Shown: positions 40 to 17,752 of the stretch, piece by piece
Numbering within the stretch: the stretch's first letter is position 1
Layout: every line of letters begins with the position of its first letter
From: a virus
Taxonomy: Duplodnaviria > Heunggongvirae > Uroviricota > Caudoviricetes
Length of the DNA: 22,828 nt
Reading direction: 5' to 3' (one strand)
Virus record (IMG/VR): IMGVR_UViG_2737471841_000005
Coordinates: 1 to 22,828 of that record
The notes under the pieces: generated by a model
Seen by the model: the letters and a program-made list of their open reading frames with translations, nothing else
Databases searched by the model: none
Told to the model about the DNA's origin: nothing
Made by a program: the position numbers and the translations under genes

Positions 40-402
40 GGGGCTGATTCTGGATTCGACGGGATTTGCGAAACCCAAGGTGCATGCCGAGGGGCGGTTG
101 GCCTCGTAAAAAGCCGCAAAAAATAGTCGCAAACGACGAAAACTACGCTTTAGCAGCTTAATAACCTGCTTAGAGCCCTCTCTCCCTAGCCTCCGCTCTT
201 AGGACGGGGATCAAGAGAGGTCAAACCCAAAAGAGATCGCGTGGAAGCCCTGCCTGGGGTTGAAGCGTTAAAACTTAATCAGGCTAGTTTGTTAGTGGCG
301 TGTCCGTCCGCAGCTGGCAAGCGAATGTAAAGACTGACTAAGCATGTAGTACCGAGGATGTAGGAATTTCGGACGCGGGTTCAACTCCCGCCAGCTCCAC
401 CA
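40..402 (+). ncRNA. ssrA: tmRNA (transfer-messenger RNA, SsrA)
   Basis: Begins GGGGCTGATTCTGGATTCGACGGG and ends ...GGACGCGGGTTCAACTCCCGCCAGCTCCACCA, 363 nt, matching my memory of E. coli ssrA; contains the tag reading frame; possible -10 TATACT at 20..25 upstream. Confidence 0.95.
129..161 (+). other. tmRNA tag-peptide reading frame (ANDENYALAA + TAA)
   Basis: GCA AAC GAC GAA AAC TAC GCT TTA GCA GCT TAA read directly in the sequence; canonical enterobacterial degradation tag. Confidence 0.9.
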
Positions 403-403
403 A
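358..403 (+). repeat. attL core: 46-bp direct repeat lying in the 3' end of ssrA
   Basis: ATGTAGGAATTTCGGACGCGGGTTCAACTCCCGCCAGCTCCACCAA recurs identically at 17707..17752; identity breaks on both sides. Confidence 0.85.
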
Positions 404-410
404 ATAAAAC

Positions 411-446
411 AAGGGGTTACGTGAAAACGTAGCCCCTTTTTCTTTG
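411..446 (+). terminator. Rho-independent terminator after ssrA
   Basis: Hairpin AAGGGGTTACG-TGAAAA-CGTAGCCCCTT followed by TTTCTTTGG. Confidence 0.8.
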
Positions 447-575
447 GTAGTGGCGGCAAAATGGCGATAGCCATGGACTAGGGTTGGGTACACCCACATT
501 GCTCTCTATCCTTATGAGTGATCGCACACACGCCTCTACTTTCAAGCTATATTCTAATCTCAATATGAGGCTACT

Positions 576-1289
576 ATGGACTTCAACCTGAACAAAAAAA
601 TGCCAGTTAATAGATATCTTGTGATAATAGTTTTTGTCCTTTTAATCTTAGCCTGTATGCAGTTTATTTATCTTTGCCTTCGTTCATTAAGCATTGCCCC
701 AAACTATACGGGGACTGTAAGTGACATTATAATAGCTACAACAAATATTATTTTAGCTACCTACGCCGTTCGTGCATTCAAAAACTTATTTAAAGATAAA
801 CTATCCGATAATGCCATTAGTAAAATAGATACAGCATTGATGTCTCTCGATGATTGCATAGATAGTTTTTCAAGCTTATTTTTAAATATGACACTTATTA
901 AGATTTATAAAAACACTAATAACCCCAAGGACCCTCAGTTAGTTAAACAGCTCGATGAAGCAGCAAAAAACATCGAAAAAGCAACAAGTTCAGCCTACAA
1001 GGCAAGATCTATAATTGGCTCATTAACTCGTTGGAATATAAGCTTAAACACAGAAAAAGGAATAAGACTAAACCAACTTACCGCTGATGTTTTTGAGTTA
1101 GGCATGCAGGCAACAAATATGTATATCGCACTAATAAATGAAATAAACCCTAACTCCCCATACAACTCTTTAACTCATAGACCATTTGATGAGTTATTTA
1201 ACGAATTTAATGAAGAAAAGACCAGAGTTGAAGACGAAAGCAATGAATTAAAAGAGTTCTCTATTCATGAAATATTTAAAATCAAATAA
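576..1289 (+). CDS. Hypothetical membrane-anchored protein (AT-rich cargo gene between attL and ogr)
   Basis: 237-aa ORF; ATG at 576 with GAGG 6 nt upstream; hydrophobic N-terminal segment (YLVIIVFVLLILACMQFIYLCL) then a charged, helix-prone domain; visibly AT-rich versus the phage genes; no family recognised. Confidence 0.7.
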   Translation: MDFNLNKKMPVNRYLVIIVFVLLILACMQFIYLCLRSLSIAPNYTGTVSDIIIATTNIILATYAVRAFKNLFKDKLSDNAISKIDTALMSLDDCIDSFSSLFLNMTLIKIYKNTNNPKDPQLVKQLDEAAKNIEKATSSAYKARSIIGSLTRWNISLNTEKGIRLNQLTADVFELGMQATNMYIALINEINPNSPYNSLTHRPFDELFNEFNEEKTRVEDESNELKEFSIHEIFKIK

Positions 1290-1366
1290 GTTATTATAGA
1301 ATAATTTTAAAAAATCATTTGCATTCTTCTTGTGTCAAAAATCAAATAACTGTCTCGATATTATTC

Positions 1367-15397: not shown

Positions 15398-15713
15398 AGT
15401 AACTTATGAAAACAAACTCAAACTATTTACAAATATAATATTCAGCAGGTTATCCATTCTCATTTAACTCTTCAGACTGAGTTTAGGTTTTATTTATAGA
15501 ATAAGATAATTTTTACATCACAAAAAAACATATAAGCCCTCATCTTTGTTGTATAAAAACATCAAAGATGCCACATTCAAAAATAGTAGAAAAGCATAGC
15601 ATTGCAACATTAAAAAGAAACCAATAAAAAACAGTCATTAGAAAATGAAAAAAACAAAAACATTTTTTATCGAAGCTTCAGTCTGACTACTAGTTTGACT
15701 CTGCAATTAACTT

Positions 15714-15745
15714 TCAAGATGATCAATATTTATTGATCATCTTGA
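15714..15745. repeat. Near-perfect 32-bp palindrome (15-bp arms, TT centre) with two GATC sites
   Basis: TCAAGATGATCAATAT-TT-ATTGATCATCTTGA; lies about 30 bp past the 3' end of the deaminase gene in the AT-rich int/cargo spacer. Confidence 0.7.
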
Positions 15746-15777
15746 AGCTTACCTCAGGAAGGATGAGTATAATATTT

Positions 15778-17511
15778 CTACTCAAGGAGATATTCTAACT
15801 CATCTTTTATCGGGATAATTTGCTCATAAAGTCGGTGATATGACTTCCCAATTGCGCCTCTAAATTGTATTAACTTTGGTGGCTTACTACCTATATTAAT
15901 AATATGGTCTTGAGCTATACCTGGGTAGGGATCAATAAATACAATTTCAGATATACCTAACTGATAAGCTTTTTTCGCACACAACTCACAGGGACTGGCA
16001 GTTGTATACAACTTCCCCCCCAGAACGCCAATACCACCATATTTTGCAAGTTGTAAAAATGCGTTTTCCTCAGCATGTAATGCACGTGTATGAACTTGAT
16101 TACCTTTTTTCTCTTTATCAAGATCATTATGTATATCTTTAAAACAATAAGATAAGTTCCTGCCTCTATAAATATCACCAGTTTTATCTATCGCCCTAAA
16201 ATTTAAGAGTTTCTCATTAGCTTTAATTCTGAAAGAACTATTATTTCTCTCATAATGACTGTACGTTTTTTCATCAAAATCGTTCATTAGGCCATCTAGA
16301 GATCTCATAGAGCAAGGAATCTGACCGTTGGCAACATCATTCCAACCAACTGATTTTATTGAATTATCACCATCAGTTACTACAGCTCCCACCTGTCTAG
16401 ATATACAGCCAGAGTTTAATTTTACCGTATACGCAACTTGCATAACCCTTTCCATTGCAGTAGGTGTTATCAGACCAGGATGCTTCATCAGTGCGATGTA
16501 CCACGCTAATTGTGCTTTTAAAATATTGTCATTATCAAATTCATTTTTTGGGTTAAAAATGTGTATATCTGATAGTTCAATACATTTAGTTACATTTGGA
16601 TTGGTGAGATGTTTGTAAGAGTTATCACCTTTACCTGACTCTACAGAATCTATTTCCTCTATCTGCTTTTCTGAAAACTTATGTAGTTTCCGCAAATAGT
16701 TTGTTCGATGTTCATCTGGGGCATTTATTGACATTAAATGAAATGCAGAATATCTATCCTTAAAAAATTTTGCCTCATATGGATTTCTAATAGCATCTAT
16801 GACAATTAATGCGTTATCTCTTTTGCTTTTTCTTATTAATTTAATAACCCTATTAATAGTTTCCGGCAAATGAAAAACAGATTTAGGCATAAACTCTTTA
16901 TCTTCAAAATCGACTTCAATACGCCCACGACGTCTAATTGACTTACCTGCTAACTGATAGGCTGAAACATATAAATTTGAGTTTATCTCATTTAGTTCAG
17001 CTTTGAATTCTTTAGTAAATTTTCTAACTAACTTCAAAATTGATATAAATTTATTAATCGTTTTTTCATCAAGCTTCAATTCACTATTATGATCAAGCAA
17101 ATTCTCAATTACATTTTTAAATCTTGTCAAAATGAGATTATCTGAGAATACACCAAAAGTTAATACAATATCTAAATGCTCTTTACTGATAAATTTATTA
17201 GATGATAGAATGAATTCAGAAGCTTCCTCAACTGTTAACATCAGAAGATACGCTGAGATTAGGTCACTCACCTTAATTGAGTAAAAATTTTCCCAGTGAT
17301 TTTCTGCGAATTTTTTAACTATATTATAACGATGGACATCCAATCCCTTGTAAAACCCCTGTAATTTACTTACATCAGGGAAGACTGTTTTTTCGTTTTC
17401 AAGAATATTAGCTGTTGTTGTGCAACCAGAACCAGTTCGACCTGTCAAACCGACTAAAATAAACTGCCCATTTTCAAGGAAAAGCTCACTAACGAATTTT
17501 TTTTCTTTCAT
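15778..17511 (-). CDS. P-loop kinase-like / cytidine-dCMP deaminase fusion protein (AvcD/Dcd-type anti-phage candidate)
   Basis: 577 aa from ATG 17511 (GTG at 17514 in the track); N-terminal P-loop-like VGLTGRTGSGCTT, C-terminal zinc deaminase motifs HAEENA (around 16075) and PCELCAKK (around 15990); strongly AT-rich; sits between int and attR. Confidence 0.85.
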   Translation of the reverse strand: MKEKKFVSELFLENGQFILVGLTGRTGSGCTTTANILENEKTVFPDVSKLQGFYKGLDVHRYNIVKKFAENHWENFYSIKVSDLISAYLLMLTVEEASEFILSSNKFISKEHLDIVLTFGVFSDNLILTRFKNVIENLLDHNSELKLDEKTINKFISILKLVRKFTKEFKAELNEINSNLYVSAYQLAGKSIRRRGRIEVDFEDKEFMPKSVFHLPETINRVIKLIRKSKRDNALIVIDAIRNPYEAKFFKDRYSAFHLMSINAPDEHRTNYLRKLHKFSEKQIEEIDSVESGKGDNSYKHLTNPNVTKCIELSDIHIFNPKNEFDNDNILKAQLAWYIALMKHPGLITPTAMERVMQVAYTVKLNSGCISRQVGAVVTDGDNSIKSVGWNDVANGQIPCSMRSLDGLMNDFDEKTYSHYERNNSSFRIKANEKLLNFRAIDKTGDIYRGRNLSYCFKDIHNDLDKEKKGNQVHTRALHAEENAFLQLAKYGGIGVLGGKLYTTASPCELCAKKAYQLGISEIVFIDPYPGIAQDHIINIGSKPPKLIQFRGAIGKSYHRLYEQIIPIKDELEYLLE

Positions 17512-17706
17512 CACGTCCCACTTATGAATGCAAGAACAATTAGCATATTAATTATAATTTATTAACTAATTTTATTCTAGATGCTTGATGTAATGGCGGC
17601 ACTTTGGCGGCAGAGCATTAAAAACGCGTAAGACGAGCAAATACAAAATAACACTAACACATTGTTTTCAAACATAATCTACTGTTTTTACTATAATAAA
17701 AATGGT

Positions 17707-17752
17707 ATGTAGGAATTTCGGACGCGGGTTCAACTCCCGCCAGCTCCACCAA
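17707..17752 (+). repeat. attR: second copy of the 46-bp ssrA 3'-end repeat
   Basis: Identical to 358..403; not a full tRNA/tmRNA gene, since no upstream tmRNA body is present. Confidence 0.85.

Follow-up and report, generated by a model that had tools for sequence, protein, structure and literature searches.

A Fels-2-type prophage in the tmRNA gene, ssrA, is a common and well-described arrangement; the integration of Fels-2 and SopEPhi into ssrA has been published (PMC3448106; PMC10107115 Table 1). In the stretch of DNA analysed here (22,828 nucleotides, hereafter the window), a preliminary description had proposed that a 46-bp direct repeat delimits such a prophage, of the P2/186 type, at the ssrA 3' end. 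This raises the question of what kind of element lies between the two copies, whether it is a complete phage genome and what has become of ssrA. The features on which our answer rests are listed in Table 1.

A repeat search of the whole window confirmed that the two copies agree at 46 of 46 bases (ATGTAGGAATTTCGGACGCGGGTTCAACTCCCGCCAGCTCCACCAA) and lie 17,349 bp apart. The identity ends at the borders of the repeat, where the left flanks read ...CCGAGG and ...AATGGT and the right flanks ATAAAAC and TCATGAT. By our own arithmetic, the number of exact 46-mer repeats expected by chance in 22.8 kb (~22828^2/2 x 4^-46) is roughly 5e-20. The flanking repeat is the 3' end of ssrA, and its gene-proximal copy completes a full-length tmRNA, which encodes the tag peptide ANDENYALAA and is, in the portion covered by window 201-403, 100% identical to ssrA of strains with an empty site. 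tmRNA was the only RNA family that Rfam found over the window. From left to right, the repeat comprises 17 nt, the T arm (375-391), the 3' strand of the acceptor stem (392-398), ACCA (399-402) and one further base. It had been taken for the last 46 nt of ssrA; the placement at the 3' end holds, but the length does not, since both ARAGORN and Rfam end the gene at 402, which leaves 45 nt of the gene plus 1 base. The 3' end of the tmRNA had also been said to be rebuilt by phage DNA. The gene is indeed intact, but because both copies are identical, neither the phage-derived bases within the 46 bp nor the crossover position can be read from the sequence; the phage origin of the ssrA 3'-end bases follows from the known mechanism of integration. 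Everything from 404 on is phage DNA, including an intrinsic-terminator-like hairpin with a T run (411-438; terminator scan) that begins 8 nt past ssrA.

Related strains carry the attachment site attB unoccupied and in a single copy. A synthetic junction (201-403 joined to 17753-17952) served as an empty-site probe and was searched in 5,426 complete E. coli genomes; it was found unbroken at 100% identity in many of them, and 2,525 of the 5,426 cover at least 80% of it at one place. The comparison with an empty locus that the preliminary description had called for is provided by E. coli W2-5, in which window 1-403 and 17707-22828 meet and overlap on a single 46-mer, ssrA being joined to the DNA right of 17752. 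The right flank of W2-5 is 99.94% identical to the window.

The phage counterpart also exists, as one uninterrupted stretch of P arm, core and P' arm. In the cos-ended record of the Escherichia phage Cartapus, one exact 46-mer lies between the homologues of window 17586-17706 and 404-470, and re-joining the ends of Fels-2 yields the same 46-mer core, with a P' arm in which 67 of 68 bases agree with window 404-471. Moreover, a synthetic attP was covered across the core in Cartapus, SEN8 and vB_YpM_MLG42. Arm-type repeats of the 186 type, for which the consensus tgccGCCActt has been reported (PMC3448106), stand on both sides of the core: a motif search located one TGCCGCCA site in the P' arm (451-458) and two in the P arm (17594-17601 and 17605-17612), all on the minus strand, so that, of the five such sites in the window, three are no more than ~115 bp away from a core. 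A local duplication or an assembly artefact, with no site-specific integration, would explain the bare existence of the repeat and nothing more. This reading is refuted by the recurrence of the same junctions in 230 complete genomes (attL probe) and in independent draft or read-based assemblies, and by the existence of both empty sites and attP; we give it essentially no credence.

The element further contains a Fels-2-clade tyrosine integrase, a 186-type CI/Apl/CII module and P2-type late genes with ogr. Compared with Int of other elements, the integrase has an amino acid identity of 93.2% for Fels-2, 93.2% for Cartapus and 100% for the prophage of E. coli 47-1826, and the early region is 99.6% identical to the latter prophage. 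Together with the empty site, the contiguous attP and the arm sites, the integrase, CI, Apl and CII bear out the view that the two copies are the att sites, attL and attR, of a P2/186-like element. The integrase had, however, been placed immediately inside the right copy, which is incorrect: 2,309 bp separate its stop codon from the repeat, and this gap holds a dCTP deaminase gene and the 121-bp P arm.

Table 1. Features of the window on which the analysis is based
Feature	Position	Strand	Basis
ssrA (tmRNA), full length	40..402	+	ARAGORN; Rfam RF00023, 295.8 bits, model positions 1-374/374
attL core, left 46-bp copy (last 45 nt of ssrA + 1 nt)	358..403	+	Repeat search, alignment
P' arm of attP, now attL-proximal phage DNA	404..470	+	Match to Cartapus attP (96.5%) and Fels-2 attP; terminator scan; motif search
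Cargo in att-ogr slot, 237-aa predicted membrane protein	576..1289	+	Sequence; 34% GC region
ogr/Delta-like late-gene activator	1392..1607	-	Pfam PF04606, 4.8e-22
Retained tail genes, whole block	1676..8513	-	Pfam, PHROGs, annotations of 47-1826 prophage and Cartapus
gpD	1676-2776	-	
gpU	2773-3258	-	
Tape measure gpT	3255-6332	-	
gpE	6459-6761	-	
Tube FII	6816-7331	-	
Sheath FI	7341-8513	-	
DNA invertase (Gin/Cin/Hin type), full length	8656..9228	-	Pfam Resolvase 2.3e-53 + HTH_7; Cartapus homologue annotated DNA invertase
Invertible tail-fibre segment remnant	9250..9849	+	Pfam Gp53-like_C; matches in other prophages
Truncated replication endonuclease gpA, N-terminal ~370/804 aa + 16 out-of-context codons	9791..10951	-	Pfam Phage_GPA
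Deletion junction, 10-bp imperfect microhomology	9840..9849	.	Local alignments to relatives L007 and L003 overlap here; blast maps
Early genes: Dam methylase, TraR/DksA zinc finger, DUF2732, DUF5347, Fil, CII	10948..13352	-	Pfam, PHROGs, 47-1826 annotation
Apl/Cox-like excisionase and repressor	13385..13627	-	PHROG 6912 excisionase 4.1e-39; PHROG 575 Cox-like 5.2e-28
186-type CI repressor	13747..14379	+	Pfam Phage_CI_repr + Phage_CI_C
Tyrosine integrase, full length, 338 aa	14381..15397	+	Pfam Int_N + Phage_integrase
Cargo in int-att slot, anti-phage dCTP deaminase, 578 aa, strand opposite integrase	15778..17514	-	PADLOC dCTPase 1.1e-145
P arm of attP, 121 bp	17586..17706	+	Homology to Cartapus, SEN8 and Fels-2 attP
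attR core, right 46-bp copy (displaced ssrA 3' fragment, wild-type sequence)	17707..17752	+	Repeat search, alignment
Third, degenerate att relic	21853..21990	+	Repeat-family search; blast to K-12 and attP; alignment

The element (404-17752, 17,349 bp) is a defective half-prophage and not a complete one. Taken at its simplest, the title of the preliminary description implies a complete, inducible P2/186-like prophage. In favour of this are int, Apl, CI and CII, together with ogr, the tail genes and the perfect att sites. However, Cartapus, Fels-2 and the 47-1826 prophage measure 33.4-34.3 kb and the element no more than 17.3 kb, and its gpA gene breaks off near codon 370 of 804. The element has no genes for capsid, scaffold, terminase or portal, none for baseplate, tail-fibre shaft, holin or endolysin, and no cos; in terms of a complete P2-like prophage, the Q-L capsid/packaging operon, cos, V/W/J/I, H, the lysis cassette and a full gpA are lacking. 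The gene content thus refutes completeness, to which we assign hardly any probability.

What was lost can be delimited by comparison with two relatives (L003 and L004), in which the intact gpA gene has 2415 nt. The missing block amounts to ~18 kb, falls between window 8640/9366 and 9840; with it went the genes for tail fibre, baseplate and lysis, those for capsid, terminase and portal, the cos site and the C-terminal half of gpA. The tail block to its left is 96-97% identical in nucleotide sequence to the 47-1826 prophage and to Cartapus. What remains of the invertible segment is an alternative C-terminus of the fibre (9250-9663), followed from 9685 by a tail-fibre-assembly gene that is truncated, and its matches to 'gp53-like' and 'tail fiber assembly protein' of other prophages run up to window 9849 only. 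The homology to gpA starts at window 9840 (31893 in L003) and covers positions 1-179 of the 321 of the Phage_GPA profile. The sequence at the junction, CGTATTTCCG, is a microhomology common to the tail-fibre-assembly gene and gpA. A deletion mediated by the invertase was also considered but is not supported: the junction lies inside these two genes, at 10 bp of microhomology, with no recombination site. Among the 5,426 complete E. coli genomes, none covers at least 80% of the window at one place and none crosses the deletion junction. The same truncated gpA ORF is nevertheless found in six contigs from different assemblies (draft or read-based), one of them 100% identical to window 1-20951, and because of this recurrence the deletion is not an assembly error.

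Its small size (17 kb), integrase, regulators, defence cargo and lack of capsid genes would also suit a helper-dependent phage satellite, P4-like or PICI-like, with an ssrA-specific integrase. Yet, two cargo genes apart, all ORFs of at least 70 aa that the att sites enclose are P2/186-like and match full phages at 93-99.6% nucleotide identity, and P4-type genes (sid, psu, delta, alpha primase) are absent. Without cos, a helper could not package the element, and the two genes that border the gap are both cut short at an evident deletion junction; we therefore hold a satellite to be very improbable. A domesticated R-type tailocin, kept by selection, might in turn be seen in the tail genes, as sheath, tube, tape measure, gpE, gpU, gpD and ogr are all full length. 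Such a tailocin is a complete contractile tail with baseplate, fibres and lysis genes and no capsid, whereas here baseplate V, W, J and I, fibre H, tail-completion R and S and the lysis cassette all fall in the deleted block. Moreover, a related lineage (L011) has also deleted sheath through tape measure (window 3678-8760), a further loss that indicates ongoing decay. Selection for a tailocin is in our view highly unlikely.

We consider it very probable that a phage of the Fels-2/SopEPhi group integrated in the ssrA 3' end and that a later, single microhomology deletion of ~18 kb turned it into a grounded prophage; nothing that we found contradicts the integration model. In the course of events that we propose, a temperate phage of this group (186-like Peduoviridae) would have entered the ssrA 3' end of E. 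coli, its tyrosine integrase recombining the 46-bp core common to attP and attB, with GGCGGCA/TGCCGCCA sites in the arms of attP. Integration would have set phage DNA right after ssrA, in the order P' arm with terminator, cargo gene, ogr and tail genes, and would have displaced the ssrA-end copy of the 46 bp to the far side, past int, the dCTP deaminase cargo and the P arm. The microhomology-mediated deletion (junction 9840-9849) would then have removed everything from the fibre, baseplate and lysis genes through capsid, terminase, portal and cos to the C-terminal half of gpA, with a non-replicating, non-packageable prophage of 17,349 bp as the outcome. The repeat, the insertion with its empty site, the contiguous attP, the gene content and the deletion with its junction are directly shown, and we infer the recombination chemistry and the crossover position; the order of integration and then deletion is suggested by the existence of intact relatives, and the deletion could alternatively have arisen in another host lineage and been transferred by recombination. 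Precise excision may still be possible, to judge from the full-length int, the Apl excisionase and the two perfect att sites with their arms, and it would leave a wild-type ssrA because both 46-bp copies are identical. The main use of these results is a correct annotation, in which 404-17752 is a defective Fels-2-type prophage with base-exact borders and ssrA is intact.

Two cargo slots by the att sites should be useful to those who seek phage-defence genes, since they hold a known dCTP deaminase and an uncharacterised membrane protein. The former is an NCBIfam equivalog (NF041025, 425 bits against a cut-off of 400) with a GC content of 30-34%. The 237-aa protein had no match in Pfam, PADLOC, NCBIfam or PHROGs; it has 12 homologue clusters, and in another ssrA prophage (L008) this slot likewise holds a 70% homologue. 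Two N-terminal hydrophobic helices can be read from its sequence, followed by a helical bundle in an AlphaFold model of moderate confidence (pLDDT 77.9), with which a Foldseek search of the PDB returned generic helical bundles only (best E = 0.017) and no significant fold match. The CI gene probably confers immunity, and the element may be of some benefit to its host. It is conceivable, though doubtful, that the grounded prophage has been kept as a small defence island, in which the 237-aa protein would be a new anti-phage or superinfection-exclusion gene alongside the dCTP deaminase and CI immunity; the perfect att sites would then allow a clean loss of the island with ssrA unharmed.

The window also contains a third att relic, in which a right end of CP4-57 type passes into a decayed piece of the ssrA 3' end (CCGCCAGCT-CAACAA, about 21914-21929). 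This piece is followed by a 62-bp copy of a Fels-2-type P' arm with terminator, about 94% identical to 404-464. The relic shows the locus to be a tandem graveyard of ssrA-targeting elements, with ssrA as a site that gathers mobile elements in tandem.

Like Fels-2 (Salmonella; NC_010463, Felsduovirus) and SopEPhi, the element is 186-like, of the Peduoviridae, and located in ssrA. It shares with Fels-2 an identical 46-mer att core, a P arm with two GGCGGCA repeats and the gene order att-ogr-D-U-T-E-FII-FI-invertase ... gpA-dam-...-CII-Apl-CI-int-att, and its right-hand ssrA fragment has the wild-type sequence CGCCAGCTCCACCA, as for Fels-2 and SopEPhi (PMC10107115 Table 1). However, its host is E. 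coli and not Salmonella, ~18 kb from the invertible fibre segment to mid-gpA are gone, and the 237-aa cargo gene is present between the P' arm and ogr. Furthermore, int of Fels-2 ends ~117 bp from the core, whereas 2.2 kb of dCTP deaminase cargo separate int from the P arm here. Cartapus (OV696611, Peduoviridae, Elveevirus) is 95% identical in nucleotide sequence over 73% of the element but has a complete genome, with capsid, baseplate and lysis genes, a full gpA and annotated cos ends, and it carries other cargo: a RES-domain gene in the int-att slot and a different gene in the att-ogr slot. E. coli 47-1826 (NZ_CP184839) harbours an intact prophage at the same ssrA site, between two exact 46-mers 34,315 bp apart; it is 96.8% identical to the window in the left part and 99.6% in the right part and likewise has this dCTP deaminase in the interval from int to attR, but it is complete in capsid, baseplate and lysis genes and gpA and is without the invertase segment.

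CP4-57, the cryptic prophage of K-12 with the P4-type integrase IntA, likewise uses the ssrA 3' end as attB and has the same ypjA-side flank, K-12 aligning with the window from 17737 on. Its integrase adjoins ssrA, whereas here the neighbours of ssrA are the 237-aa cargo gene and then ogr, and the sole integrase in the window, of Fels-2 type, stands at the far end. The element thus has neither the Arm-DNA-bind_3 integrase by ssrA nor the sid/psu/delta/alpha or alpA genes of a P4-like satellite or CP4-57-type island, and CP4-57-type material in the window is confined to a decayed right end (21853-21929). In CP4-57, one base is missing (CGCCAGC-CCACCA) from the duplicated segment, psaA, which is annotated at 14 nt, and excision therefore inactivates tmRNA (PMC10107115). 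The duplicated segment described here is, at 46 bp, much longer and identical in both copies, in contrast to K-12, where excision of CP4-57 switches off trans-translation (PMC10107115).

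The tmRNA gene in the window is full length and was placed identically by ARAGORN and Rfam (Rfam score 295.8 bits), with ANDENYALAA as the tag peptide. An exact 46-bp direct repeat (ATGTAGGAATTTCGGACGCGGGTTCAACTCCCGCCAGCTCCACCAA) begins within its 3' end; the two copies agree at 46/46 bases, and the identity breaks off sharply at both flanks. By our own arithmetic, chance alone would give ∼5e-20 such repeats in 22.8 kb. The preliminary description had taken the repeat to be the last 46 nt of ssrA. This holds for 45 of them: since the tmRNA gene ends one base earlier, the final base of the repeat lies outside the gene, and the other 45 are the end of ssrA. 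The parts of the repeat and the other features of the locus are listed in the table.

Features of the ssrA locus and of the element inserted in it (window positions)
Feature	Position	Strand	Remark
tmRNA gene (ssrA)	40-402		
Repeat, left copy (attL core)	358-403		
Repeat part, 17 nt upstream of T arm			read directly from sequence
Repeat part, T arm	375-391		read directly from sequence
Repeat part, acceptor stem, 3' strand	392-398		read directly from sequence
Repeat part, ACCA	399-402		read directly from sequence
P' arm	404-470		
Terminator-like hairpin	411-438		12-bp stem
att-ogr slot	471-1476		between P' arm and ogr
237-aa cargo gene	576-1289	+	low GC
Gin/Cin-type invertase region	8656-9849		
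Tail-fibre-assembly gene, truncated	starts 9685		
gpA ORF	9791-10951		
Deletion junction	9840-9849		10-bp imperfect microhomology
Integrase gene	14381-15397	+	338 aa, full length
int-att slot	15398-17585		
dCTP deaminase gene	15778-17514	-	DNA of 30-34% GC
P arm	17586-17706		
Repeat, right copy (attR core)	17707-17752		
ypjA pseudogene	17912-21301	-	ORFs of 108, 700 and 330 aa
Degenerate att relic	21853-21990		third att
Decayed ssrA 3' piece	∼21914-21929		CCGCCAGCT-CAACAA
YpjCB-family gene, C-terminal part	22085-22828	-	runs past window end

A probe for the empty site (201-403 joined to 17753-17952) was searched in 5,426 complete E. coli genomes. The junction is contiguous at 100% identity in many of them, and 2,525 cover at least 80% of the probe at one place. 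This P' arm is joined to ssrA in 230 (∼4%) of the 5,426. Comparison with an empty ssrA locus from a related strain, which the preliminary description had proposed as a check, supports its reading: in E. coli W2-5 the ypjA-side DNA directly follows ssrA, and window positions 1-403 (100%) and 17707-22828 (99.94%) overlap there on a single 46-mer. This shows that the window holds a precise 17,349-bp insertion at ssrA. The reciprocal attP probe (17507-17752 joined to 404-603), searched in phage records, matched in one piece across the core in Escherichia phage Cartapus, Salmonella phage SEN8 and Yersinia phage vB_YpM_MLG42, the match reaching ∼120 bp leftward and ∼67 bp rightward from the core. 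Cartapus, a Peduoviridae record of 33,368 bp with a cos site annotated at its end, contains exactly one perfect 46-mer. In a four-way alignment the 46-mer is common to all four sequences, and the DNA left of attR and right of attL is that left and right of the Cartapus core, respectively.

The Fels-2 record is cut inside attP, and its ends were re-joined for comparison. They give an identical 46-mer, a P' arm equal to window 404-471 at 67/68 bases and a P arm with the same two GGCGGCA repeats. The motif TGCCGCCA matches the 186-type arm-repeat consensus tgccGCCActt (PMC3448106). The window holds five copies of it where 1.06 would be expected, and three of them lie within ∼115 bp of the cores (451, 17594 and 17605). 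Between the repeats, the genes follow the same order as in the Fels-2 prophage: P' arm and terminator; cargo gene in the att-ogr slot; ogr, gpD, gpU, tape measure, gpE, tube and sheath; Gin-type invertase with part of the invertible fibre segment; gpA, Dam, a TraR-like gene, DUF2732, DUF5347 and Fil; CII, Apl and CI; and Int, a second cargo gene and the P arm. The integrase shares 93.2% identity with that of Fels-2 and likewise with that of Cartapus. Integration of Fels-2 and SopEPhi into ssrA has been published (PMC3448106; PMC10107115 Table 1). Empty site, contiguous attP, Int and gene order thus agree in identifying the repeat copies as attL and attR of a P2/186-like element at ssrA, as first proposed; from Int and gene order, the label can be narrowed to the Fels-2 type of 186-like Peduoviridae. 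The integrase, however, is not immediately inside the right copy as had been stated, because its ORF stops 2,309 bp short of it and a 578-aa gene on the opposite strand lies between.

An intact relative occupies the same site in E. coli 47-1826 (NZ_CP184839), with two exact 46-mers 34,315 bp apart. The window matches it in 1-470, 1477-8639 (96.8%) and 9840-18448 (99.6%), and 18.5 kb of that locus (its positions 13373-31892) are absent from the window; compared with Cartapus, ∼17.8 kb are missing, through cos. The missing block comprises fibre gene H, baseplate genes I, J, W and V, tail-completion and lysis genes, L, M, N, O, P and Q, cos, DinI and the C-terminal 434 codons of gpA, whose remaining ORF matches profile positions 1-179/321 only. 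Microhomology at the junction, between gpA and the tail-fibre-assembly gene, indicates an illegitimate deletion rather than site-specific recombination. The exact 386-aa fusion ORF recurs in different assemblies, on six contigs in all; one of these (GCA_005391745.1) has 100% identity to window 1-20951, and the lineage of GCA_005400305.1 combines the same gpA deletion with a further loss of window 3678-8760. The deletion is real and inherited. As cos, the capsid genes and part of gpA are missing, the element can be neither replicated nor packaged. The invertase is full length; the deletion has removed part of its invertible tail-fibre segment and with it, probably, the second recombination site. 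The pinH-like fragment at 21602-21732 shares 76% identity with a 131-bp stretch at 8963-9093.

Both cargo slots are filled. The int-att slot carries an anti-phage dCTP deaminase (PADLOC dCTPase model, 1.1e-145; NCBIfam equivalog above cut-off), whereas Cartapus has a RES-domain gene there; a recent survey counts this region among the minor defence hotspots of P2-like phages, with 3% of their defence systems (PMC13586616). Neither Pfam, PADLOC, NCBIfam nor PHROGs gave a match for the 237-aa protein of the att-ogr slot, and its predicted fold has no significant counterpart. Two hydrophobic helices are predicted at its N-terminus, followed by a helical bundle, and it has only 12 homologue clusters, mostly in E. 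coli. In the ssrA prophage remnant of GCA_043711775.1, this slot is taken by a 70% homologue. The gene is a candidate for an uncharacterised phage-exclusion gene.

To the right of attR lie a decayed ypjA autotransporter gene and then a pinH-like invertase fragment. The ypjA pseudogene (AIDA/Ag43-type adhesin) is without ∼1.3 kb found in K-12 (24132-25438 of the K-12 locus), and W2-5 has the same disrupted form. Further on, the degenerate att relic contains a decayed ssrA 3' piece, preceded by DNA resembling the right end of CP4-57, the cryptic prophage at K-12 ssrA (76.6% identity to K-12), and followed by a 62-bp copy of a Fels-2-type P' arm with its terminator. The relic, also found in K-12, W2-5 and E. 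coli F1005, is evidence of older integrations stacked at ssrA, so that the locus is a row of ssrA-targeting elements in tandem, the youngest beside the gene. Just after the relic P' arm, in what would be the cargo-gene position of an older Fels-2-type element, is the YpjCB-family gene (NCBIfam NF050179, profile positions 227-465/465). The 6.3-kb remnant in GCA_043711775.1 has two exact 46-mers, and a P4-type integrase comes after it. In GCA_005400305.1, the place that ssrA holds in the window, beyond the remnant's P' arm end, is taken by a further element with an integrase. These two loci are further decay stages and tandem arrays.

Following known P2/186-family biology, Int and host factors would have recombined the attP and attB cores, and Apl with Int would reverse the reaction. 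With the two cores, the two arms and the int, apl and cI genes all intact, precise excision seems plausible. That the 3' end of ssrA is reconstituted by phage DNA, as previously claimed, follows from this mechanism, as identical copies cannot display it directly; what is visible is that all DNA from 404 onward is phage, including the terminator-like hairpin downstream of ssrA. In K-12, the ssrA fragment displaced by CP4-57 reads CGCCAGC-CCACCA, and excision inactivates tmRNA (PMC10107115). Here, in contrast to that altered fragment, the repeat copies are identical, so that any crossover point would restore wild-type ssrA (CGCCAGCTCCACCA). A related ssrA prophage in F1005 (NZ_OY754353.1, ∼20890-21030) has a one-base deletion in its right att copy (CGCCAGC-CCACCAA), an allele that it shares with psaA at the CP4-57 right end in K-12; thus, the state of the right copy varies between strains. 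Excision of the F1005 prophage with a crossover left of the deleted base would inactivate ssrA, and the deletion may be the scar of an earlier CP4-57-type occupant. The element in the window is of a common, already described kind, here defective and carrying a known defence cargo.
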